DNA from: a virus
Taxonomy: Duplodnaviria > Caudoviricetes
Length of the DNA: 62,741 nt
Direction: 5' to 3' (one strand)
IMG/VR virus record: IMGVR_UViG_3300036773_000072
Coordinates: 1 to 62,741 of that record
The translations under genes were made by a program, and so were the position numbers. The stretch's first letter is position 1; every line of letters starts with the position of its first letter. Below, piece after piece: positions 48,240-62,741 of the stretch. The notes beneath the pieces are model-generated. The model had not been told where the DNA came from, ran no database searches, and saw only the letters and a program-made list of their open reading frames with translations.

Positions 48240-48388
48240 CAAAGCAGTCCCCCGGTCAGCTTCTGCGAGAGGCTGGGTCCGGGGGCTACGTCACCGACTG
48301 TACCCCGCCACGGCGCGGGGAGCAACGGCGAATCGCCACGCCGGCATAGCTGATCCACACCGCTGTGACCGGGGGTTATCATCCGCTC

Positions 48389-49039
48389 ATGAGCGAACAG
48401 GTGAAGATCCTCCGGACTCGGTGGGTAGCCATCGACTCGGTAGCCGCTCACCCTGAGAACGCTCGCAAATCGGACACCGACAGCATCCGCCGGTCCCTGG
48501 AGGACCACGCGCAGTACGCCCCGATCGTGGTGCACGAGGCCAGCCGGAACGTGATCGTGCACAACCACGTGTGGATGATCGCCAAGGAGCTGGGCCACAA
48601 GAAGATCTACGCCACGTTCGTGGACTGCTCGGACGAGAAGGCGCGAGCCGTGCTGGCCGTGGACAACCGGACATCCGATGTGGCCACCTACGACGAGACG
48701 GCGTTGATCGCCCTGCTGGAGAGTTTGGACGCGACCGACTCCCTGGGGCAGGCCGGCTACGACCTGGGGGATCTGGACGACCTGCGGGCGCGGCTGGAGG
48801 AAGTGGACGAGCTGGAGGTGCCGGGCGAGGTGTCCCGCGACCGGCCGGCGCGCACCCTGGACGAGCAGCACGCGGACTACGCGGAGTCCGGAGTGCGCTC
48901 GATCGTGGTCATGCTGAGCAGCGAGGCGTACGTCAAGCTGGTGGCGCATCTGGACCAGATCCAGGCGCATTTCCAGACCGCGAACTACTCGGACACCGTG
49001 GCCGCGCTGGCGGCCGACTACGTGAAGCAGGTGCTGTGA
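48389..49039 (+). CDS. ParB-like N-terminal domain protein (leaderless; -10 TATCAT at 48377)
   Basis: HPENARK…IRRSL…QYAPIVV…HNH…AVDNRTSD. Confidence 0.8.
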   Translation: MSEQVKILRTRWVAIDSVAAHPENARKSDTDSIRRSLEDHAQYAPIVVHEASRNVIVHNHVWMIAKELGHKKIYATFVDCSDEKARAVLAVDNRTSDVATYDETALIALLESLDATDSLGQAGYDLGDLDDLRARLEEVDELEVPGEVSRDRPARTLDEQHADYAESGVRSIVVMLSSEAYVKLVAHLDQIQAHFQTANYSDTVAALAADYVKQVL

Positions 49040-49881
49040 AGACGCTGGAGCTGCCGCGCCTGATCGAGCGCGCCGAGGCGCGGGCCGCGCTCGTCGGTTC
49101 GCGCGTGGCCAGCCTGACGCCCACGGTCACCGAGGACACCCTGATCGTGGACGCGGACAGCGGCGAGCCGGTGGCCTACTACGCGCCACTGGGGTCGGTC
49201 GACTGTCGGGACCTCCGCTGGGCCGTCCGGTCGATCAAGGATTTCAACGGCGTCAACCGGTCCGGCTCGGGCTATCGCACGTATTCCGCGACGTTCGGCA
49301 CGGCGCCACGCAAGCCTGTGTTCCAGCGCGAGGGCTGCGCCTCCACGGCGGTGAAGCGGGACTGGCCGGCGCAGCACGCGGTGCTCGAACGGTATGCGGA
49401 ACGATGCCAGGCCATGCTCGCGGACGTACTGCCGGAGATGGTGCGGCGGTCGCAGGACGAGTCGCAGGCGATCCTGCCGGACTGGCGACTCACGCCCGAG
49501 ACGCTGTGGACCTCCGGCGTGATCAACCGGACGGTGGCGATGCCGTACCACACGGATACCTCGAACTACGACGTGTGGTCAGCGATGCCGGTGGTGCGTC
49601 GCGGCGTGCGTGGCGGGCACCTGCACATCCCGGAGTACGGCGTGGTGCTGGAGTGCCGCGACTCGTGGTGCTCGTGGTTCCCCGGCCACCGGCTAGTGCA
49701 CGGCGTGACGCCGATGAGGGTGACCGATCCGGACGCCTATCGCTATTCCGTGGTGTTCTATGCCCTGCGGGGAATGAAGGACTGTGCCACGGCCGCCATG
49801 GAGACCGCCTACGCGCAGGGCAAGCGCACCGACCGGGAGCGCGCCTACGCGGCCGACCTCGCGAAGGGGCTGACGCAGTGA
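49036..49881 (+). CDS. TET/JBP-family 2OG-Fe(II) dioxygenase
   Basis: TFG..PR, WTSGVIN, YHTD (HxD), GGHL.IPEY, HGVTP, RYSVVFY. Confidence 0.88.
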   Translation: MKTLELPRLIERAEARAALVGSRVASLTPTVTEDTLIVDADSGEPVAYYAPLGSVDCRDLRWAVRSIKDFNGVNRSGSGYRTYSATFGTAPRKPVFQREGCASTAVKRDWPAQHAVLERYAERCQAMLADVLPEMVRRSQDESQAILPDWRLTPETLWTSGVINRTVAMPYHTDTSNYDVWSAMPVVRRGVRGGHLHIPEYGVVLECRDSWCSWFPGHRLVHGVTPMRVTDPDAYRYSVVFYALRGMKDCATAAMETAYAQGKRTDRERAYAADLAKGLTQ

Positions 49882-49883
49882 TC

Positions 49884-50747
49884 ATGCAGACCCCGATGGT
49901 GGAGACCTACCGGCGCTGGCACTGGATGCAGCGCGACACGCAGGACATCGACCCCGTGTATCCGGTGCTGCGCGAGCTGACCCGGAGCTGGACGCACGAG
50001 GAACGGGCGTGGCTGGTGCTGCTGCACGTCGGCTACTACCACCTGGGCTCCGCGTTGCGGGCGTTCGACGCATACCCGGTACCCGACCGGGGCCTGGTGA
50101 CGAAGGTCGGCCGGCTGCCGTGCGCCACGGAGCGGCGAGGGCACCGCAACCCGATCGCCCTGGCACGGCACTGGCTGAGCGTGCTGGACGCGATCGAGCA
50201 GTGGGGTAGCGCGTACGCACTGCTGTGTGCGCCGTCCTGGGCCGAACTGACCGCCCGACTCACCGGTATCCACGGCAACGGCCGCTGGGCCGCGTACAAG
50301 GCAGCGGAGATGGCGCAGAAGGTGCTGGACGTGCCGGTCACCGTGCCGGACGCGGCGCACGCGGACAGCTCCGGTCCACGCAAGGGCCTGTCGCTCGTCC
50401 TCGGTCCACAGCCTGTGGACAACGGTGTGGATACGATTCGTCAACTGGACACATTGACGACAGAACTGGCACACGATCTCCGCGAGACCGACCTGGGATA
50501 CGTCGAGACCAGCCTGTGCGACTTCCACAGCCTGGCCGAAGGCCGGTACTACCTCGGGCACGACATTGATCAGATGCTAGGCCAGCTTTACGAGGTGCCC
50601 ACGATCTCGACTTCACCGACACTGCTGGCCCGCCGGCACAGCCTGCCGGACGCCTACCTGGGCGAGGTTCACGGCTGGCGGGGGATCTGGTCCGACCGGC
50701 GACAGGTGTTCGCACGCAGCGGCTACATCATGGAGAGGTACGCATGA
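49884..50747 (+). CDS. Amino-acid:DNA transferase (aGPT-Pplase2-like, HhH fold)
   Basis: DIDPVY, TERRGHR, GNGRWAAYK..E, SGPRKGL, ETSLCDFHS…GRYYLGHDID. Confidence 0.8.
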   Translation: MQTPMVETYRRWHWMQRDTQDIDPVYPVLRELTRSWTHEERAWLVLLHVGYYHLGSALRAFDAYPVPDRGLVTKVGRLPCATERRGHRNPIALARHWLSVLDAIEQWGSAYALLCAPSWAELTARLTGIHGNGRWAAYKAAEMAQKVLDVPVTVPDAAHADSSGPRKGLSLVLGPQPVDNGVDTIRQLDTLTTELAHDLRETDLGYVETSLCDFHSLAEGRYYLGHDIDQMLGQLYEVPTISTSPTLLARRHSLPDAYLGEVHGWRGIWSDRRQVFARSGYIMERYA

Positions 50748-51541
50748 TCATCGTGGTGGGTAACGGCATCGTAGGGTCCTGCCTGTCGCGGCACCTGGGC
50801 GACCGAGGGATACGACACCTGGTGGTGTCCGCCAGTGCGCCGGACTCGATGGCGGCGGCGGCACTGCTGCGCCGTGGCTACCACCACGGCGACGAGCTGG
50901 CCCTGTTCGACCGGTCGCTGGAGCTGTTCAAGACGTGGGGCGTGGACGTGCAGTCCGGCGGCTGGGTCACCAACTACCGCAAGCCGGGCAAGCGTCCGCA
51001 CCAGGAAGCCGACTGGCACATCCTGGACCCGTGTACCCCGCTGGTGTCGGCCGACGTGCAGGCGTTCGCGGTCCGCCACGAACAGGGCGTGCTGGTGGGC
51101 GATCCGACCGACGCGGAGCTGATCAAGGCTGACCGGGTGTTCTGGGCGACCGGCGCCGTAGACGCGACCGGTATTACGCACGGCGTGACGTGGACGCACC
51201 CGGACCCCGCCGTGCTGACCTCGCCCAGCCGGCTGCGGCTGCACCACTACGCGCCGTACAAGACGATCGTGGCCGCCCGTGTCGGTGGCGCCGCTCGCCT
51301 GGGCAGCTCGTCAGCGAAGTCGGCTACCACGGCGTTGACGCAAGCCGAGCGGATGTTGGCCACCGCAGCCGAGGTCGGCATGATCCGCAGTCTTCAGGGC
51401 TGGAGGGCGGTGACCGGCCTGCGGTGCAAGGGCACGAACGCGACCCCGTCCGGCATCCACTTCGGCATCGTCGGGTTCCACCGGACCGGCTACGCGATCG
51501 CTCCGGCGGCCACTGAGCGGTTCGTGGAGCGTGCGCTGTGA
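50744..51541 (+). CDS. FAD-dependent oxidoreductase (DAO/glycine-oxidase-like)
   Basis: IIVVGNGIVG, SMAAAALL, WATGA, GLR, GFHRTGYAIAP. Confidence 0.85.
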   Translation: MIIVVGNGIVGSCLSRHLGDRGIRHLVVSASAPDSMAAAALLRRGYHHGDELALFDRSLELFKTWGVDVQSGGWVTNYRKPGKRPHQEADWHILDPCTPLVSADVQAFAVRHEQGVLVGDPTDAELIKADRVFWATGAVDATGITHGVTWTHPDPAVLTSPSRLRLHHYAPYKTIVAARVGGAARLGSSSAKSATTALTQAERMLATAAEVGMIRSLQGWRAVTGLRCKGTNATPSGIHFGIVGFHRTGYAIAPAATERFVERAL

Positions 51542-52098
51542 CCAGGTTGATCTACCTCGTGGGCGAGCCGGGCGTGGGCAAGTCGTGGCTGTTCACCGAG
51601 TTGACGAAGGCGTTCGAGCGGACCGCGCTGCCGACCCCGGCACCGCGTCGGGAGTTCCTGCTGAGCCCGGACCGCAGCTCGATCGTCGGCGTGGAGCTGG
51701 GCGCGCGAGCCGGCAAGCACCATGCCGGCTATCCCGGCACCGACGCGCTGCCGATGAACGCGGTCATCGCTGCTGAGCAGTACCTGGTCTCAGGGACCGC
51801 GCAGCGCGAGACCCCGCTGATCCTGGCCGAAGGCGCGCGGCTGGGCGTGCGCCGGTTCCTGGACGCGGCGCTCACGGCGCGCATCGACACTCACGTGGTG
51901 CTCGTGACCGACCCGGAGCGGGCCGCCAAGCAGCGGGCCGACCGAGGATCGGCGCAGAACCCAAGCTGGGTGCGTGGCGCGACCACGCGAGCTGTCCGGT
52001 TCTACGCCTACGCGGTGCAGGCCGGCGTGAGCACGCACGCTTACGCGATGCGGCCGGCAACCGAAGTGCTGGCCGGTCTGGCAGATCTGATCCGGTAG
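51538..52098 (+). CDS. P-loop nucleotide kinase (candidate 5hmU-DNA kinase)
   Basis: LVGEPGVGKS, GTDALPM, EGARL, RGSAQNPSW.RG..T. Confidence 0.8.
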   Translation: MTRLIYLVGEPGVGKSWLFTELTKAFERTALPTPAPRREFLLSPDRSSIVGVELGARAGKHHAGYPGTDALPMNAVIAAEQYLVSGTAQRETPLILAEGARLGVRRFLDAALTARIDTHVVLVTDPERAAKQRADRGSAQNPSWVRGATTRAVRFYAYAVQAGVSTHAYAMRPATEVLAGLADLIR

Positions 52099-54939: not shown

Positions 54940-55407
54940 ATGGGTCAGCAGGAAGCGCGGCCGGAATCCATCACCGACCTGCCGAACTACGTCCAGACCG
55001 AACAACTGGCCTTCATTCGGCTCACGCAGCCGATGCTGCTGGCCAACGTCCTTCCGATCATTGACGCGCTGCTGCACAACGCGGCGCACGCCTACGGCGA
55101 GGACATGCTGGTCATCGACTCGTCCGGCGGCCAGATCGAACTGGGCCGCAGGCTGGACACGGGCGAGCTGGCCAAGATCCTGGCCGAGACGCAGGAGAAC
55201 TGGGACCGCGAGAACGATCAGCGGGAGCTGGCCGCCGGACGAGTCGAGCTGGTCGTGGGCGATGCGTTCGACGTGTCCGGCTACCAGCACACCTGCAAGC
55301 GCCAGGTCGGCTCCGAGATCTGTGCCCTGAACCGCCGGCACTACGGCAAATGTCTCGCCGTACGAGACGGCCATGTGGTCGAAACTCGCCCCGGACTCTG
55401 GCAGTAG
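54940..55407 (+). CDS. Hypothetical protein
   Basis: GAGGGG SD after promoter copy 7. Confidence 0.65.
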   Translation: MGQQEARPESITDLPNYVQTEQLAFIRLTQPMLLANVLPIIDALLHNAAHAYGEDMLVIDSSGGQIELGRRLDTGELAKILAETQENWDRENDQRELAAGRVELVVGDAFDVSGYQHTCKRQVGSEICALNRRHYGKCLAVRDGHVVETRPGLWQ

Positions 55408-55415
55408 CTCGAACC

Positions 55416-55450
55416 TCAACCCGTGCGTCACTACCCGACGCACGGGTTGA
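55416..55450 (+). terminator. Hairpin
   Basis: TCAACCCGTGCGTC / GACGCACGGGTTGA. Confidence 0.7.
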
Positions 55451-55490
55451 TTCGTGAATTGCGTCTCTGATTCGTGAACAGGAGGACACC

Positions 55491-55949
55491 GTGCCCGACA
55501 TGAACATCAGCCTGCCGGATATCAAGCTGCCGGATATGGGCAATTGCGACGTGTGCAATAACGAACCGGCGGTAGGCGTGGCCTGCGTGCCGGGAATGCC
55601 GGTGAGCGTCGCCTACGGCGCAGCCTGTCTCGCCGCCAACGCGCATCCGTACGGATTGCTGGTGGCCAACACCGCGCTGATCGGCAACTACGCGGACAGC
55701 ACGGAATGGTGGCAGGAAATGATCGACGCCACGCTGGCCCACCTCGGCAAGCCGCGCGAGCAGTTCGACGCGGACGTGGCCGAGTCCAGTGCCGAGTTCG
55801 AGCGCGAGATAGCGCTGGCGGACGAGAAGCTGGAGACCATGGCGGCCGACCGCAGTCCGCTGGAGTTCCACCCGGCCGGCTGCATCTGTCCCGGCTGCGG
55901 TGGAGTCACCACGCAGTCGCGCTGGACAGGCGGTGAGCCTCGTGGGTGA
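55491..55949 (+). CDS. Cys-containing hypothetical protein
   Basis: AGGAGG SD; CDVC…SVAYG..CL. Confidence 0.65.
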   Translation: MPDMNISLPDIKLPDMGNCDVCNNEPAVGVACVPGMPVSVAYGAACLAANAHPYGLLVANTALIGNYADSTEWWQEMIDATLAHLGKPREQFDADVAESSAEFEREIALADEKLETMAADRSPLEFHPAGCICPGCGGVTTQSRWTGGEPRG

Positions 55950-56602
55950 TCTGCCGAAGCTCAAGCGAGACTGGATCGGCCGGAAGGTCCGAACCAAGAA
56001 CGTGCTGCGCAACGGAAACTCGATTATCCCGGCTGGCACCGAGCTGATCGTGGCGGACAACCACTCTGGACTGCGCCTGCGGTCCGAACCGTGCGAGCAC
56101 TGCGGCGTCTCGATCTACATCACGCGGGTGCCCGAGTCGTCCGTAACCCTGCTCCCGCTGGAGGTCGAGACCCATGGATGAGCTGCCCGGAATCCTGGAG
56201 CGCCTGGCGAACCTGGCCGACAACCTGGAGCTGAAGGCGGCTGCGCCGCTGGAGGACGCCCAACTGACGATGCAGCACACGCTGTACGAGCTGGACGCTC
56301 TGACCGGCCGCGCGCCGGTCAGAGGTGTGCGGCCATGGTGGCTGTGATGGACGAGGCGACTCAGCAGGCCATCCTGCGGATAGCGGACCTGATCCAGGAC
56401 AAGCTGGAGGACGAGAACACCGACCGCCAGTACATCGCCGAAGACGCCCTGGCCCGTCTGGACATGCTGGCCGACCCGACCGGCGTGCCGCGCGGCGGCA
56501 TCGTGTGGGGAGTGTCGACATGAGGTACCTCATCGTGCTGGCGCCGCTCGCGCTCGTGGCACCGATGATCATCAGCCTTCTGCTCGAACACAGGAGGCCA
56601 CG

Positions 56603-57217
56603 ATGATGGCACCCGGCCACATGGCCCACGGCGCGCTGTTCGGCTTGGTACTGGCACCGCTGGCACCACACCCGGCCGGGCTGCTGGTGTCCACTGCGGT
56701 GCTCGTCGGTACCGGCGTGATCGGCGCCTTGGTACCGGACCTGGACCACCCGAAGTCGCGCCTGACGCACGCGCTCGGTCCCGTCACGTGGGTCCTGAGC
56801 TTCTGTCTGGTCCGGCTGTCCAAGGCCGTCTACATGGCGACCAGGACCAAGAAGGACTCGCCCGGTACCAACGGGCACCGGGCGATCACGCACACGCCCG
56901 TGTTCGCGCTGGCGGTCGGTACCGGCACGTTCCTGGTACTGGTACCGACCGGCCTGCACGCCTACGCCCTGCTGGTGGCACTGGGCCTGACGATGGGCTG
57001 TTTCGCCCACCTGTGTGGCGACTCGTGCACGAACAGCGGCGTGCCGTGGTTCTGGCCACTGGTGCGCGACGGCAAGCGCTGGGGCCACTACGGCATCCCG
57101 AAGGCACTGCGGTTCGAGACCGGTGGCGCCGTGGGCGAGCCGTTGATGACGCTGGTGTCGGTCGCGGCGTGTGTCGCCGTGCCGCTCGCCTACGGCTACC
57201 TGGGCTGGGGGGTGTGA
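56603..57217 (+). CDS. Membrane-bound metal-dependent hydrolase (YdjM/DUF457-like)
   Basis: GH…PDLDHPKS…GHRAITHT…HLCGDSCT.SGVP. Confidence 0.85.
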   Translation: MMAPGHMAHGALFGLVLAPLAPHPAGLLVSTAVLVGTGVIGALVPDLDHPKSRLTHALGPVTWVLSFCLVRLSKAVYMATRTKKDSPGTNGHRAITHTPVFALAVGTGTFLVLVPTGLHAYALLVALGLTMGCFAHLCGDSCTNSGVPWFWPLVRDGKRWGHYGIPKALRFETGGAVGEPLMTLVSVAACVAVPLAYGYLGWGV

Positions 57218-58163
57218 CGTGGCGGACGAGGTGTTCACGACATGGCGGATCACGGTTGACCTGCACACGGATGTGCTGGAGGCCGATGCACGGCGCGTGT
57301 TGGACGCGATCAAGCGGATGGACGAGGTAGCTGGCGCTGACCTGGAGGATTTCGATGGATGAGCAAGCGAACCTGGCGCCGGACGCCAAGCAGCCGGGCT
57401 ACGTGGCCGAAATCGACTTGACGCCTTACGGCGCCTCGTGGGGCTCGCAGCCGAGGCATCACGGGGAGATCGACTACGTGTTTCCCGGCCGGGCGGTGCT
57501 CGTACTGCCCGGCCGGGAGTGGCTGGCCGAGCCCGAGGCGTGCGAGTGGGATGGGCCGGGCGAGTGGGTGTTGGACGACAAGGTGCTGGTCTGCCCCTGC
57601 TGTGGTCTGGACTGCACGTGAGCCGCCGGCAACGCGCCCGCGTCCGCCGACAGGCGGCCACCTACCGGCGGTGTGAGCTGTGCGGCAAGCGCGTCTACCC
57701 GGACGCCATCGGCGCCAAAGTGGACGGCGCCTACTGGAGCCAGCGCGTATACCCCTGTCCAGCCGGCCAGGGCTTCCATCTCACGAGCCTGGAGGTGTGT
57801 TGTGCTGGGTGAGCAGCGAGTAGTCGCCGAAGCGACCGTGCAGCAGGGTCCGCTGACGTGGATGTACTGGCCGAACCTGGAGGGCCGGCAGTTCCTGATC
57901 GACAAGATCCGGGCGGTGTACCGCACCACCGAGGACGGCCGCTGGGTGATCCGGCACCTGTGCCTGTCCGGCCGAGCGCTGCTGGTGGACGGCACGATAG
58001 GGCGCACGGAGCGGTTCCGGTTCTATGAGCCCGAGCCGCGCCCGCGTGCCAGCCACGTGCCGGACAGCCCGTGGATCGACGCGCCGGAGTGGGCTCGTCG
58101 CTGGGCTGCCGAGCTGTGCCCGCAGACTGTGGTGATCAAATCGACTGTGTGAGCGCTGAGACC

Positions 58164-58211
58164 ACCGCGAGACGCCCCGGACATTGATGCAGGTCCGGGG
58201 CGTCTCGCGGT
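58164..58211. terminator. Long hairpin between convergent operons
   Basis: 19-bp perfect arms ACCGCGAGACGCCCCGGAC / GTCCGGGGCGTCTCGCGGT. Confidence 0.8.
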
Positions 58212-58396
58212 CTCGACCGGTACAGAGACTGGATCTTGAACAATCTTACCGTGAGTAGAACGATCTCACTCTGCATACCCGCAGGTCAGCAGCGTGATCG
58301 AGCCTTCTGAACCGGTGAGGATCACGGGTCGCGCGCACGCCTGCGCGCCTAACGCGCGGGCGAACATGAGACCCGCGTTGCGACTGTCCGTGCACG

Positions 58397-60280
58397 TCAC
58401 GCGCTCACGTCCACGTCCGCAGCCGCGCCCGTGTGCCACACGCCCGAGCGCGAGTGCGCGCGACCTTCGCCCGCGAGCCGGTTGAGCCGCCGGAACACGG
58501 TGGCCCGCGACAGGCCGGTGCGTTCGGCCAGCTCATCGGCCTTGCCGGGCTCGATGTCCAGCGCGGCCATGACCTCGTCGGGCTCGGCATCCTCGTCGGG
58601 CATGTCGATGATGATGCCGCCGTGGCCCATGAGGGCTGCCCAGGCCGTGGGTTCTGCGGTGGGTCGGCCGGCGGCCACGCACGCCTCGATGTGGGCTCGC
58701 CGGTCACGCACGGTCACGAAGTAACCCTTGGCGATGTTGGGCGTGGAGTGCGCCTCGTCCCGCAGCAGGTGCTGACCCGTCTTCAGGCCGGCACTGTTCC
58801 AGCCGTAGCGCACCAGGTCCCCCCACAGCACGCGGGAGGCGTGCGCGTCCAGCGCGAGGCCGACCGTGGACTTGAGCTGGGCCTGGAGTTCCTTGCTGCC
58901 CGTGTCCGCCTTGCTGCCGTTCTGGCACAGCAGGATGAACCGCACCCCGGCCTTGCGGCCACGCTTGCCGCAGCGACCCACCAGGGCCAGGTGCTTCTGG
59001 CCTTCCTTGCCTCGTCCCTCAGCCTCGGCAACGAAGTCCGGATACTCGTCCACGATCACGGTCAGCCACGGCTCGCTGGGACTGGGCATGAAGGCGTCCG
59101 GGGCGTCGTCGCTGGACGCCTTGTCCAGGCCCAAGCGCCGTTCCCGGTCCTCGATGAACGCCATGACCCGCTCGAACAGCACCACCGTGGACTCATAGTC
59201 CGTGGCCACCGGCATACACATGACCGGCTCCCACACACGCAGGGTGGCGCCGGACGCGAGGTCACCGGCGGCCAACATGCAGTCGTCGCAGGCCGCGAGG
59301 TAGACCAGCAGAGACTCCAGCCAGATCGACTTGCCGGAGCCGTTGGCGCCCACCACGAGGGTGTGCTGGAGCATGTAGATCTCTTCCATCGCGTCCGCGT
59401 GCAGACCCATCGAGAACCGCAGGTCATTGGCCCGCAGGGAGACCGTGCCTGGCGCGGGCATCGGGTGCAGGATCTTGCCCTTCCACGGGTCCTTCGGCAG
59501 GAACCGCAGGCTGACTCGCCGGGCGTTGGACTCGTCGGTCAGCAGGTAGATCGAGGACAGCCGCAGCGAGTAGAAGCTGGCCAGCGTGTCCATGCGTGGC
59601 GCGAGCTGTGCGGCCGTCATGCCTTCGGCCAGCCGGATCGTGAGGATGGACTGGCCGCGCGAGCCGCGCGCCTCCACCACGCGCGAGCCGTGCAGCTCGC
59701 GGATCGGGCCACGTTCCTTGTCCGCGAGGATGCGCCAGCGCCGGGCGTACCGGTCCGCCCGGCCGGCTACCCGGATGCGGCGGTGGTACCACCAGGACCC
59801 GCCGAACACCAGGAGACCAAGCTGCCACCACAGGGCCGTCGTGGTACTGGGGCCGGCACCGACCCGCAGTGCCAGCCAGCCACCGAGTGCCGCGAGGAAC
59901 AGGGCCAGATAGGTCCGTTCCGGTACCCGGTCCAGCACGCCCTTGCGGCCGGCATCCACCGAGTCCGGTACCAACGCGAGTACCAAGCGGGACCAGGGAC
60001 CGGACAGCCGTGGTCCCAGTACCGCGAGTACCAAGCCGGCGGCCGGGAGTACCAGGGCCGCCCACCAGGTCCACGACGCGGTACCACGCCAGACCAGGGC
60101 CAGGATCTCGGTACCGGTGGCGAGGTACAGCGGGGTGAGTACCCGGCGCCAGCGCCACGCCAGATGGCTGATGCCCTTGCCGATGGGCCGGATGACGAAC
60201 CGGAACAGGCCGTAAAGGAACAGGCCGGTCAAGATCCCGTCGCCGAACAGGTCAACCAGCGGGTGCTTCTTCTTTGCCAT
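58397..60280 (-). CDS. TraB-like FtsK/SpoIIIE DNA translocase
   Basis: N-terminal TMs; Walker A GANGSGKS; Walker B VIVDE; GRKAG; C-terminal wHTH (ELAERTGLSRATVFRRL). Confidence 0.85.
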   Translation of the reverse strand: MAKKKHPLVDLFGDGILTGLFLYGLFRFVIRPIGKGISHLAWRWRRVLTPLYLATGTEILALVWRGTASWTWWAALVLPAAGLVLAVLGPRLSGPWSRLVLALVPDSVDAGRKGVLDRVPERTYLALFLAALGGWLALRVGAGPSTTTALWWQLGLLVFGGSWWYHRRIRVAGRADRYARRWRILADKERGPIRELHGSRVVEARGSRGQSILTIRLAEGMTAAQLAPRMDTLASFYSLRLSSIYLLTDESNARRVSLRFLPKDPWKGKILHPMPAPGTVSLRANDLRFSMGLHADAMEEIYMLQHTLVVGANGSGKSIWLESLLVYLAACDDCMLAAGDLASGATLRVWEPVMCMPVATDYESTVVLFERVMAFIEDRERRLGLDKASSDDAPDAFMPSPSEPWLTVIVDEYPDFVAEAEGRGKEGQKHLALVGRCGKRGRKAGVRFILLCQNGSKADTGSKELQAQLKSTVGLALDAHASRVLWGDLVRYGWNSAGLKTGQHLLRDEAHSTPNIAKGYFVTVRDRRAHIEACVAAGRPTAEPTAWAALMGHGGIIIDMPDEDAEPDEVMAALDIEPGKADELAERTGLSRATVFRRLNRLAGEGRAHSRSGVWHTGAAADVDVSA

Positions 60281-60281
60281 C

Positions 60282-61316
60282 TCAGGCACCTTCCTTGACG
60301 AGTCGGGCGATGCGGCCGGCACGCGCGGTGCCGAGGTTGTAGGCGGCTGCGATCGCCCTGCGGGTGGTGTGACCGTCGTGCCGGGCTCGGGCCACCAGGT
60401 CGTCATCGCTGCCGGCCTTGGCGGTCACGACGTGCTCGGACCGGCGGATGGGCGACACCTTGGCGGGACTGGCGGCCGACTGATCCGGGTGCACCTTGGC
60501 CGGCGCCTCGTCCCGGATCGGCCGCAGGACGATGGTCCGTTCGGACAGCGTCTCCGGCGGCACGGGCCGATGAGCGGTGACTGACTCGGGCTCGGTGACG
60601 GGCGAGATCACGGGCAGGTCGTCAGCGGCCGTGGGTCGCGGCGCTTCGGGCTCGTCCTGGTGCGTTGTAGGTCGGTCGGGCTCGACTTCCCCACGCACAT
60701 CCGGCAACGGTTCGGTCACGATCGGCTCGGACGGCCGGACGGGTTCGGGCGGTGCGACGTTGGGCGGTGCCACCAGGCCGACCAGGTCAGTGACGGGCAC
60801 GGCGACCAGGGCGGTCCGGAACGCGGACCAGGTGCCCCGCCGGTCAACGGTCCAGCGCAGCGCCAGCAGCCCGAGCCGCAGGCGGAACGCGCGCTTGCCG
60901 TGCCGGATCTCCCATTCGGCCCGCAGGTCGGACAACACCACGTCGAACACCAGGACGGCCGCGAAGGGCAGGGCTGCGCCTACCCACTGCGCCAGGCTGT
61001 TGCCCTGGAAATGCCAGTTGATCCAGCCGGAGACGGCGGTGAAGGCGTACATCAGGACCCGGCCGCGCAGCACGGCCCGGCCGTAGATGGACGAGCGGTA
61101 GACCAGCACGGAGCAGGCGAACGCGGAGCCGTCGAACGAGCCGGGCACCAACCACGCCGTCACGTCCGTGTAGCCGTGCATCGGGTCCAGGGCGAACCCG
61201 TGCAGGCCGACGAACGACGCTGCCCAGCCGGCCACGGCCGCGAGCGCCACGAAGCCGAGCACGAGGCGGGCCAGGCGGATGCCGGACAGCCGGGGCAGAC
61301 GCCGTTCGTCGCTCAT
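60282..61316 (-). CDS. DUF2637-like (Spd-type) membrane protein with C-terminal HTH
   Basis: ASFVGL…AWLVPGSFDG…S..IN..; four TMs; Pro-rich linker; RRAIAAAYNLGTARA.RI. Confidence 0.7.
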   Translation of the reverse strand: MSDERRLPRLSGIRLARLVLGFVALAAVAGWAASFVGLHGFALDPMHGYTDVTAWLVPGSFDGSAFACSVLVYRSSIYGRAVLRGRVLMYAFTAVSGWINWHFQGNSLAQWVGAALPFAAVLVFDVVLSDLRAEWEIRHGKRAFRLRLGLLALRWTVDRRGTWSAFRTALVAVPVTDLVGLVAPPNVAPPEPVRPSEPIVTEPLPDVRGEVEPDRPTTHQDEPEAPRPTAADDLPVISPVTEPESVTAHRPVPPETLSERTIVLRPIRDEAPAKVHPDQSAASPAKVSPIRRSEHVVTAKAGSDDDLVARARHDGHTTRRAIAAAYNLGTARAGRIARLVKEGA

Positions 61317-61495
61317 CGGTAGTCCTTCGGGTTGATGATCTCGAATCCCCTCAGCCGCTTTCTGCGTTCGAGGGGAATACGGATGAATGTCCAGATGACG
61401 TAGCCCACGAAGGTACCGACCGAGACCGCCCACCAATCCCAGGTGATCGACACGGCGAGTACCACGAGTGCGGCCAGTACCACGGTGGTCCTCAT
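61313..61495 (-). CDS. Small two-TM protein
   Basis: MRTTVVLAALVVLAV…; overlaps the DUF2637 start. Confidence 0.55.
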   Translation of the reverse strand: MRTTVVLAALVVLAVSITWDWWAVSVGTFVGYVIWTFIRIPLERRKRLRGFEIINPKDYR

Positions 61496-61570
61496 TGCAG
61501 CATTGTCGCATGTTCCCCCACGTAAAACGGGGTACTGAGTACCACCCGAAGATCCGCCGTAGATAAAGGG

Positions 61571-61600
61571 TTGTGCCCCGTGGCATCGGGGGGGTACATT
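61571..61600 (+). promoter_or_regulatory. Repeated promoter/operator, copy 8
   Basis: TTGTGC-N18-TACATT upstream of the DUF932 gene. Confidence 0.8.
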
Positions 61601-61647
61601 CGGTCTCACCGGGGCAGATTTGGCCCCCGAAAGCAGGAGGACACGAG

Positions 61648-62741
61648 ATGTCGAACATCACCGCCGCAGAAGCCATCGAGGGCACCCGCAACGCGAACAT
61701 GGAAGATCTGGTCGCGATCCTGCGGACGCAGCAGGCCCTGAAGGTGGACGTGGTTGCTCCGGCCGAGACCCTGCGTGTCAAGGACGGCAGTTTCGTTCTG
61801 TCCGGCCTGGACCCGGAGATCACGGACGAGGGCGTGACCGACCCCAACGGTTCCTACCGTCCCACGGCTGCGGCCGATGGTGACGTGGCCGAGAAGCTGG
61901 GCATCGGTGGGCGGTACATCCGCAAGCTGCGGTCGGAGCGCGTCGACCTGTACGACCTCAACGTCAACGGCTTGCTACGGGGCAAGAGCCGGCGCCTGGT
62001 GTCGGGGGAGACCGAGGTCATCCACCCGGCAGACAGCCGCTCGTTCCTCCTGCGCCTGTTCCGGGGCGAGGACGGCAACGAGGGCGTGCTGCGGGCGATG
62101 CTGTCCGACCGCTACGGCCGGGTTGACCACCTGGATCTGATCATGGCGGTGCTGTCCGGCATCCGCGACGCAGGTGTGGACGTGCAGATTCGCGAGTGCG
62201 ACCTGACCGAGTCCTACATGCGTGTGCGCGCGTTCTCGCCCCAGGTGAGCGCGCTCGCACCGACACTGCTGGGCAACTACCGCAACCCGTTCGCCAACCC
62301 GGAGATGGAGAAGGCTCGGCAGGAGATCTCCCGTTGGACGCGCATCGCGGACAACGAGGGCATGGGCTACGACAACGGCGAACTGGCCAACCAGGTCGTG
62401 TTCGCGGGATTCGAGTTCAGCAACTCCGAGACCGGCTCGGGCAGTGTGCGGTTCGCACCGCGCATGTTGGTGCGGGTGTGCAAGAACGGTCTGACCTTGC
62501 CGGCGTTCGCCGTCAAGCAGACGCACCTCGGTGCCCGGATGGATGAGGGCTGGAATTTCGAGGTTCAGGGCAAGGCGCTGGAGGTCATCACGGCGCAGGC
62601 CAAGCAGAAGGTAACCGAGTGGCTGTCGCCAGACTTCCTGGCCAGTCGCGTCAACGAGATCGAGGCCAAGGCTGGTGCCGAGGTCTCCGAACCGGCCAAG
62701 ACGATGAAGGTCGTTGCCAAGCGGTTCGAGCTGAGCGAGAC
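61648..62741 (+). CDS. DUF932-family protein, 5' part (wraps through the join and stops at 371)
   Basis: AGGAGG then ATG 61648; open to window end; LRAMLSDRY, FSNSETGSGS, RVCKNGL and HLGARMDEG motifs. Confidence 0.8.
   Translation, partial: MSNITAAEAIEGTRNANMEDLVAILRTQQALKVDVVAPAETLRVKDGSFVLSGLDPEITDEGVTDPNGSYRPTAAADGDVAEKLGIGGRYIRKLRSERVDLYDLNVNGLLRGKSRRLVSGETEVIHPADSRSFLLRLFRGEDGNEGVLRAMLSDRYGRVDHLDLIMAVLSGIRDAGVDVQIRECDLTESYMRVRAFSPQVSALAPTLLGNYRNPFANPEMEKARQEISRWTRIADNEGMGYDNGELANQVVFAGFEFSNSETGSGSVRFAPRMLVRVCKNGLTLPAFAVKQTHLGARMDEGWNFEVQGKALEVITAQAKQKVTEWLSPDFLASRVNEIEAKAGAEVSEPAKTMKVVAKRFELSE
62540..62741. repeat. Terminal direct repeat, copy 2
   Basis: Same sequence as 1-202, one mismatch; lies inside a CDS that reads across the join. 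Confidence 0.95.

Follow-up and report, generated by a model that had tools for sequence, protein, structure and literature searches.

The virus record IMGVR_UViG_3300036773_000072 of IMG/VR consists of a single contig of 62,741 bases, which was analysed in its entirety and is called the window here. It carries a minus-strand operon of three genes encoding a small membrane protein, a DUF2637 membrane protein resembling the SpdB proteins of Streptomyces plasmids, and a TraB-like ATPase of the FtsK/SpoIIIE type that is predicted to translocate double-stranded DNA (dsDNA) and is referred to below as the pump. A conserved DNA element, a candidate cis site, lies directly downstream of the pump gene. 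A first-pass annotation made from the sequence alone had described the three genes, the ATPase having N-terminal transmembrane segments and a C-terminal winged helix, and had seen them converge on an operon with a YdjM-like hydrolase. Both parts of this description hold: Pfam matches and hydropathy confirm the places of the three genes, the hydrolase matches PF04307, and the two operons meet at a hairpin (Table 1).

The operon (61495-58397, minus strand) is compact. The small-protein gene and the DUF2637 gene share an ATGA overlap, the DUF2637 stop codon lies 1 nucleotide (nt) ahead of the ATG of the pump gene with a Shine-Dalgarno-like AAGGAAGG upstream, and the three genes are predicted to be translationally coupled. 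The opposing plus-strand operon (54940-58152), which includes the YdjM gene, converges with the pump operon at a hairpin that is probably a bidirectional terminator; a consensus terminator scan passed over this hairpin because it has no T-run. A sigma-70 consensus scan returned 0 promoter-like sites, the divergent region in front of the operon included. The arrangement is not a chance one, because it recurs in 21 related IMG/VR loci (described below).

Table 1. Features of the pump operon and its surroundings, in window coordinates (aa, amino acids)
Feature	Position	Strand or place	Evidence
Small membrane protein, 60 aa, first gene of the operon	61313-61495	-	Hydropathy: single clear N-terminal hydrophobic segment, basic tail
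DUF2637/SpdB-like membrane protein, 344 aa	60282-61316	-	PF10935, 125.7 bits, E 2e-36
TraB-like FtsK/SpoIIIE protein, predicted dsDNA translocase (pump), 627 aa	58397-60280	-	PF01580, E 4.6e-6, 26.7 bits (cut-off 24)
Conserved DNA element, candidate clt-like cis site	58325-58375	directly 3' of pump gene	Imperfect palindrome, 17-nt core at 58338-58354
Hairpin between the converging operons	58164-58211		19-nt arms, 100% complementary, 10-nt loop
YdjM-family membrane metal-dependent hydrolase	56603-57217	+	PF04307, E 4e-26
Divergent intergenic region, presumed promoter region of the operon	61496-61647		Gene layout: operon versus plus-strand phrog_1362 gene

By its gene content, the window is a complete genome of a tailed soil phage of 62.5 kb that infects an actinobacterium. 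Its completeness is 100% according to CheckV, and IMG/VR assigns it the topology class linear. The two ends, 1-202 and 62540-62741, are identical save one mismatch (position 75), and this 202-bp repeat lies inside a 420-aa phrog_1362 open reading frame (ORF) that stays in frame across the junction. A Logan contig of 62,569 bases, assembled from the run that is probably the source of the record, represents the same DNA with a different break point. The window therefore assembles as a circle of 62,539 bp, and its ends are an assembly overlap, not physical ends. The G+C content is 65-70% along the whole length, and 90 of the 95 ORFs lie on the plus strand; these were called with a simple gene caller, so their start codons are approximate. 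PHROGs and Pfam identify a structural and lysis set (portal, MuF-like protein, major head protein, head-tail adaptor, tape measure, endolysin and terminase large subunit), as well as Erf, a single-stranded DNA-binding protein (SSB), a replication initiator, DnaB and WhiB. Among cultured phages, no nucleotide match to window positions 56000-62741 was found.

Relationship of the pump and its partners to TraB and Spd proteins

The pump has hydrophobic segments at residues 11-29, 77-95 and 128-146 and a C-terminal winged helix, the latter recognised by HTH_IclR at residues 572-606 (23.9 bits, cut-off 22). DprA_WH and HTH_24 score near their cut-offs, and together the winged-helix matches span residues 561-616. 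The Walker A (G311, G314, G316, K317) and Walker B (D411, E412) residues are invariant among 30 relatives. The nearest sequences in the PDB are FtsK motor domains (E 9e-14), and the top NCBIfam model is plasmid_TraB (NF041214; E 7e-9, 34.7 bits, model positions 62-407), with EccC weaker. Pfam and NCBIfam scans of the pump returned no match to FtsK_gamma or to NF007615, a model on which host FtsK scores 447 bits. A group of proteins of ~610 aa shares 26-28% identity with the pump over up to 94% of its length and reaches 126-173 bits on the TraB model; since it matches both, this group bridges the pump clade and TraB.

A profile was built from residues 205-545 of 30 members of the pump clade and compared with individual ATPases. 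It scored 83 bits against the TraB-like protein of a small Streptomyces rolling-circle plasmid (profile positions 9-327), 55 bits against pJV1 TraB (17-269) and 43 bits against pSN22 TraB (16-270). The matches to the FtsK of an Amycolatopsis host (45 bits, positions 95-257) and to EccC (40 bits, positions 102-252) do not extend beyond the P-loop core. A maximum-likelihood tree was made from 45 domain segments, three of them cellular rows; in it, host FtsK and EccC separate from all 42 other rows (support 98/91), and the phage pump clade, an Amycolatopsis prophage pump and locus L020 form one group (100/99). Clustering of the ATPase with FtsK or EccC domains, named in the first-pass annotation as evidence against a TraB-like function, is thus not what the tree gives. 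By predicted lineage and architecture, the pump belongs on the TraB side and not with host FtsK or EccC, as a remote TraB member.

The DUF2637 protein comprises an N-terminal membrane domain of ~185 aa, a variable Pro/Glu-rich linker and a conserved C-terminal domain of ~45 aa. Hydrophobic segments are located at residues 18-36, 111-129 and 165-183, with three to four segments overall. The C-terminal block has a helix-turn-helix-like look; its profile returned nothing significant against PDB sequences (best E 0.004). When proteins at the DUF2637 position of phage, prophage and metagenome-assembled genome (MAG) loci (n = 19) were compared as a profile with the Spd-region proteins of pJV1, pSN22 and NBC_00138, hhalign returned a probability of 93.7% with E 1.9e-7 over 81 membrane-domain columns. 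On this profile-profile result, the DUF2637 protein is homologous to proteins encoded beside traB in pJV1 and pSN22, which we take to be the ones named SpdB. Both sets share a layout of membrane domain, long low-complexity linker and small conserved C-terminal block. The plasmid proteins themselves stay below PF10935 detection at E ≤ 0.01. A small Streptomyces plasmid encodes, in this order, an FtsK/SpoIIIE protein, a 96-aa ORF, a protein named DUF2637 domain-containing protein by the Prokaryotic Genome Annotation Pipeline, and rep; the protein so named shares 68-77% identity with the ORFs just downstream of traB in pSN22 and pJV1.

SpdB2 is described as an oligomeric membrane protein with four helices that forms pores, interacts with DNA, peptidoglycan and TraB and is required for spreading within the mycelium, and spdB3-spd79-spdB2 as a translationally coupled operon (Thoma 2015, PMC4447253). 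The coupling predicted for the window operon matches this operon logic, and we count it in favour of a TraB/Spd-type machine. By its position, the 60-aa protein would correspond to Spd79 and similar small Spd proteins. An ORF of 52-89 aa occupies its place in related loci, and tblastn matches of 40-52% identity were found in three of them (L003, L007 and L008).

Across loci, the middle gene passes PF10935 in 10 of the 16 scanned. The DUF2637 domain of the window shares 54-60% identity with plasmid proteins of Saccharopolyspora and chromosomal proteins of Allosaccharopolyspora, and just 18-32% with same-position proteins of the other loci in the alignment; a tblastn search of phages with the window protein gave no match. 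In two loci (L010:8850-9920 and L019:8944-9972), the protein at this position has an HNH_3 endonuclease domain (PF13392, E ~4e-5) inserted in the linker.

The element downstream of the pump gene

A 17-nt core with the consensus CGTAAYGYGCGCAGRCG is found 3' of the pump stop codon, within an imperfect palindrome. The window copy lies on the minus strand and carries two mismatches; it is the sole match in the window at ≤ 2 mismatches, and at ≤ 3 mismatches the number of matches does not exceed chance. A pattern search recovered the core in 16 of 18 downstream regions, two of which (L015 and L024) are the same prophage, and the element could be aligned for the window and 14 other loci. In the relatives, GTCTC-type pentamers lie to one side of the core and their complements to the other. 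Pentamers in the correct orientation occur at 3.2 per 100 nt versus a background of 0.47 (~7-fold, 15 sites) and the wrong orientation accounts for 1 of 62, figures for a motif that was picked after viewing the sequences. Over the whole genome, the plus strand contains 100 GAGAC and 44 GTCTC motifs, a bias of ~2x in all bins without a switch at the element, and no strand or position pattern therefore points to the element. RNAalifold yielded no consensus RNA fold for the element (-1.55 kcal/mol), and Rfam gave a single chance-level miRNA match in positions 56000-62741 and no family at the element.

The clt sites of Streptomyces plasmids are described as short repeats near the translocase gene (PMC3583192; PMC4447253). 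The place of the element, just 3' of a predicted translocase gene, and its short repeats in inverted order correspond to these descriptions. We consider it a candidate clt-like cis site that the winged helix of the pump may bind.

As a whole, the module resembles the transfer systems TraB plus SpdB3-Spd79-SpdB2 of pSVH1 and traR-traA-traB-spd of pSN22 and pJV1. Shared are an FtsK-like ATPase with a membrane anchor and a winged helix at the C-terminus, a multi-pass Spd-related partner, a small membrane protein, translational coupling and a candidate cis site 3' of the pump gene. In contrast to these plasmids, the partner gene precedes the pump gene in the window, the pump is just 28% identical to pSN22 TraB over 151 residues, TraA, a GntR TraR/Kor regulator and a plasmid Rep are lacking, and the module is carried by a tailed phage that has a complete complement of virion genes and a linked YdjM gene. 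The TraB-type architecture and homology that the first-pass annotation had proposed are borne out by the top NCBIfam model, the coverage of the clade profile, the tree, the homology of the DUF2637 protein to Spd-region proteins and the clt-like candidate site downstream.

A second short motif, CTGACCTGCGG, is conserved ~60 nt past the core (window 58263-58300, alignment columns ~140-170). It is also found in L002, L008 and L009, and variants of it occur in L004 and L006; most other loci have a C5-6/G5-6 mini-hairpin at about this place.

Distribution of the module and clues to its host

The pump has 68 relatives at 36-64% identity. With the protein of the window included (n = 69), 22 are encoded on contigs of 56-64 kb and three on contigs of 147-157 kb, and an exhaustive profile search with a threshold of E ≤ 1e-30 retrieved 161 cluster representatives. 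In all 21 IMG/VR loci, the pump gene is preceded on the same strand by a gene for 226-356 aa (where covered), with a small ORF before that in most, and the module lies on the strand opposite to the neighbouring genes. In 18 of these loci, a YdjM homologue lies no more than a few kb from the pump gene, and in 15 of the 21 a terminase is found beyond YdjM. Contigs ~95% identical to the window were found in three other soil studies, with YdjM, pump and DUF2637 genes contiguous; one of them bridges 56600-60308, and the indels lie mostly in the DUF2637 linker.

The absence of an integrase noted in the first-pass annotation was confirmed, as six-frame searches of the window returned no match to PF00589 (tyrosine integrase) or PF00239 (serine recombinase) at E ≤ 1. 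Likewise, none of the eight near-complete ~60-kb genomes of the clade (the window, G005-G009, G013 and G014; 99-100% by CheckV) contains an integrase or recombinase.

The module also occurs outside this clade. The IMG/VR contig L009/G010 (155,347 bp with terminal repeats) is a complete phage with the three-gene module and YdjM, in which the pump is 42% identical and a search for an integrase gave none. A 100-kb element with a tyrosine integrase carries the same module. In Amycolatopsis sp. WAC 01376, comEA and comEC enclose a prophage of ~32 kb, with a serine integrase and the module at its opposite ends. As in the window, small ORFs, a DUF2637 gene, a winged-helix pump (37% identical) and a related downstream element are present; the prophage differs in its unrelated virion module, its serine integrase, a GntR regulator of the TraR/Kor kind that follows the module and an adjoining Fic gene, and YdjM was not seen in the 21.7 kb scanned. 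In the order to which this Amycolatopsis belongs, 11 of 301 sampled genomes gave a pump match at E ≤ 1e-40. In a MAG element (L023), a TraB-like gene has DUF2637, NlpC/P60 and YdjM genes on its flanks, and recombinases lie close by. Judged from these comparisons, the set of pump, partners and site is a fixed trait of an integrase-less clade of ~60-kb actinophages, linked to YdjM and recurring in unrelated phage types.

Two single loci were recorded in addition. In Amycolatopsis sp. NPDC048633 (L022:10043-11809), the pump homologue is split into two ORFs of 301 and 261 aa, which reflects either a frameshift or an error in sequencing. In Saccharomonospora phage PIS 136, a YdjM homologue is present with no pump gene annotated nearby.

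The head and terminase proteins of the window share 32-37% identity with those of phages of Gordonia, Mycobacterium, Microbacterium, Arthrobacter and Rhodococcus. Three clues from relatives hint at a filamentous host from the Pseudonocardiaceae: the identity of the DUF2637 domain to Saccharopolyspora and Allosaccharopolyspora proteins, the Amycolatopsis prophages that hold the nearest cellular copies of the module, and one clade member that is part of a Pseudonocardia MAG by its NCBI name.

Proposed working and alternative explanations

We tentatively read the operon, with a confidence somewhat short of even, as a TraB/Spd-type membrane machine that would recognise phage DNA via the downstream element and pump dsDNA across cross-walls into neighbouring hyphal compartments. 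The TraB-like ATPase would be seated in the membrane as an FtsK-like motor, and its C-terminal winged helix would recognise the palindromic element, marking phage DNA as cargo. The SpdB-like DUF2637 protein and the small membrane protein may serve as partner channel or anchor. Replicating phage dsDNA would be pumped over the hyphal cross-walls to adjacent compartments, one adsorption event could thereby convert more of the mycelium, and the linked YdjM hydrolase might help at the envelope. The binding of the site by the winged helix, the formation of a complex, the cargo, its destination and the benefit to the phage are what we infer. Phage homologues of SpdB2 have been proposed to aid the spreading of phage DNA (Thoma 2015, PMC4447253).

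A wider version of this proposal is doubtful, albeit conceivable. It holds that a TraB/SpdB-type pump and a phage-specific DNA site belong to the core of infection throughout a clade of soil actinophages that are integrase-less and probably virulent, that replicating genomes are moved through cross-walls (or into spores) without virions, and that the module was independently acquired by the 155-kb, 100-kb and 32-kb actinophages. The pump system would then correspond, in bacteria, to the movement proteins known from plant viruses.

Several observations weigh against movement through cross-walls. The pump scores far below the equivalog cut-off of the TraB model (34.7 versus 800 bits), a narrow model on which pSN22 TraB reaches 808.7 bits and pJV1 TraB 784.5 bits. 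In the tree, branching among the TraB-like groups is weakly supported (80-89), several branches are long and just the three cellular rows are included. The Pfam scan of the 95 window ORFs gave no GntR Kor/TraR-type regulator. L003 and L005, whose downstream regions are short (76 and 52 nt), lack the core, the window element has few flanking short repeats (2+2), and the density of GTCTC-type pentamers there is not above that at two other places in the genome. The relatives of the structural genes include phages of both filamentous and unicellular actinobacteria. The DUF2637 protein of the Amycolatopsis prophage (L024, 9243-9923) has tblastn matches in 117 Mycobacterium phage records, at ~25.3-27.0 kb and annotated as excisionase, membrane protein or hypothetical; as Mycobacterium is not mycelial, the family alone does not imply hyphal spreading. 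Finally, the sequencing runs containing the window sequence are all represented by soil-metagenome contigs, with no RNA dataset among them.

The alternative that survives best, though we judge it unlikely, is host take-over or exclusion: the module would disturb septation or chromosome segregation of the host, or exclude plasmids, integrative and conjugative elements of actinomycetes (AICEs) or superinfecting phages, and no phage DNA would be moved. Streptomyces phage papers list FtsK-like genes together with WhiB and Lsr2 as host-regulator mimics without demonstrating what they do. Like many accessory cassettes, the operon has a control region of its own and runs on the opposite strand, and the WAC 01376 module sits at the prophage edge by the GntR regulator and Fic gene, a typical place for genes expressed in a lysogen. 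PADLOC, however, returned weak P-loop matches only (mad8, 26.9 bits; SspH, 16.8 bits) and none for the partner proteins, the module is retained in genomes without an integrase, where no lysogen is evident, and a conserved cis element beside a winged-helix translocase better fits the recognition of cargo. If this alternative were right, the module would be one more accessory cassette.

Quite unlikely, in our estimate, is the loading of spores or compartments, in which a phage without integrase would use the translocase and the cis site to enter prespores or dormant hyphal fragments and be carried until germination. Neither integrase nor ParA is present in the clade, which is nevertheless widespread in soil. 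The FtsK/SpoIIIE family includes proteins that move DNA through closing septa, and the trapping of Bacillus phage phi29 in spores offers a precedent. No sign of sporulation control was seen in the sequence, however, and the closest characterised homologues are described as working in conjugation and vegetative cross-wall spreading (Thoma 2015, PMC4447253).

The first-pass annotation had also suggested a phage-plasmid, an idea that it found to be in keeping with a missing integrase and two ParB-like genes, though it saw no ParA. Persistence as a pZL12-like phage-plasmid with conjugative transfer between different mycelia is improbable. Its appeal lies in known elements. The Streptomyces plasmid-phage pZL12/phiZL12 (Zhong et al. 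2010, J Bacteriol 192:3747, as cited elsewhere) and similar replicons are, like the window, described as tailed-phage genomes that also carry TraB-type transfer genes. An 89.7-kb circular Streptomyces anulatus replicon (NZ_CP108377.1, 65670-78404) contains a terminase, a 716-aa TraB-like gene, kilB, a NUDIX hydrolase and Spd-like genes; it is filed as a plasmid and is probably a pZL12-like phage-plasmid. The window also assembles as a circle, but such an assembly is equally expected from a circular genome or from a terminally redundant, permuted linear one. Elements of the pZL12 type measure ~90 kb and are described as having ParA/ParB and plasmid replication, whereas the window phage measures 62.5 kb and no ParA or integrase was found; the two pumps share ~25% identity and stand on different branches of the tree.

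The gene content of the window points the same way. ParA (PF13614) was found in none of five genomes, the window included, in line with the first-pass annotation. One of the two ParB-like genes stood (48365-49039; phrog_723, E 4e-32; ParB_N at 15.3 bits, below the cut-off), and it lies directly upstream of genes that look like a DNA-hypermodification cluster and not like a partition set; a second was not found. Gene scans of the window gave no plasmid-type Rep and no TraA, and the replication genes (initiator, DnaB, Erf and SSB) are of phage type. In its predicted genes, the window lacks the integrase and GntR Kor regulator of an AICE as well as the ParA/ParB/Rep set of a phage-plasmid. Conjugation as a phage-plasmid is weakened because partition and plasmid replication genes are lacking, and the missing integrase is a trait of the whole clade that fits a lytic or otherwise non-integrating phage no less well than a carrier state.

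It is very improbable that the module is a passenger cassette newly taken from a plasmid or AICE without a role for the phage: this type of module does move between unrelated elements of ~60, 155, 100 and 32 kb, and the DUF2637 domain is closer to Saccharopolyspora and Allosaccharopolyspora proteins than to those of the other loci, but such a reading is weakened because the module is conserved, the pump tracking its clade at 36-64% identity with intact motifs and a fixed position, forming a single well-supported group (100/99) and being retained in diverged soil populations.

Transfer genes borne by phages are already known from pZL12, from phage homologues of SpdB2 and from the FtsK-like genes of Streptomyces phages. 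The temperate Streptomyces phages phiC31 (gp25), phiBT1 (gp25), TG1 and VWB are reported to encode Spd-type membrane proteins like that of the window (Thoma 2015, PMC4447253), and homologues of the pJV1 Spd-region protein were found in 16 phage records, including phiC31 gp25, phiBT1 gp25 and TG1. In phiC31-type phages, the searches matched the Spd-type protein only, no dedicated look for a TraB-like pump having been taken there. A tblastn search of phages with the pump matched Wofford and Elmer only (three records). Gp108 of Streptomyces phage Wofford (of the phrog_1358, phrog_31069 kind) is likewise an FtsK-like ATPase on the TraB side, but it is 23% identical to the pump over 37% of the protein and the annotation of Wofford gives it no DUF2637 neighbour. 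FtsK-like genes are routinely listed in Streptomyces phage papers without a function. Literature on DUF2637, phage SpdB2 homologues and Streptomyces TraB phage-plasmids yielded no study of this clade. New here are the complete set of pump, partners and site fixed in an integrase-less clade of ~60 kb, the link to YdjM and the recurrence in unrelated phages.

If the pump does move phage genomes through cross-walls, infection of mycelial bacteria would not be confined to the compartment that is hit. Burst size, plaque growth and septal containment in antibiotic-producing actinomycetes would then be understood differently, and the boundary between phage and conjugative element would be blurred.

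Apart from the module, window positions 48365-52098, directly before the terminase genes, hold the ParB-like gene followed in a row by genes matching PF12851 (Tet/JBP-like oxygenase) and PF18724 (amino-acid:DNA transferase, E 4e-21), a gene for a DAO-like protein and one matching PF18751 (P-loop nucleotide kinase 3, E 1e-27). This region looks like a thymidine hypermodification cluster.

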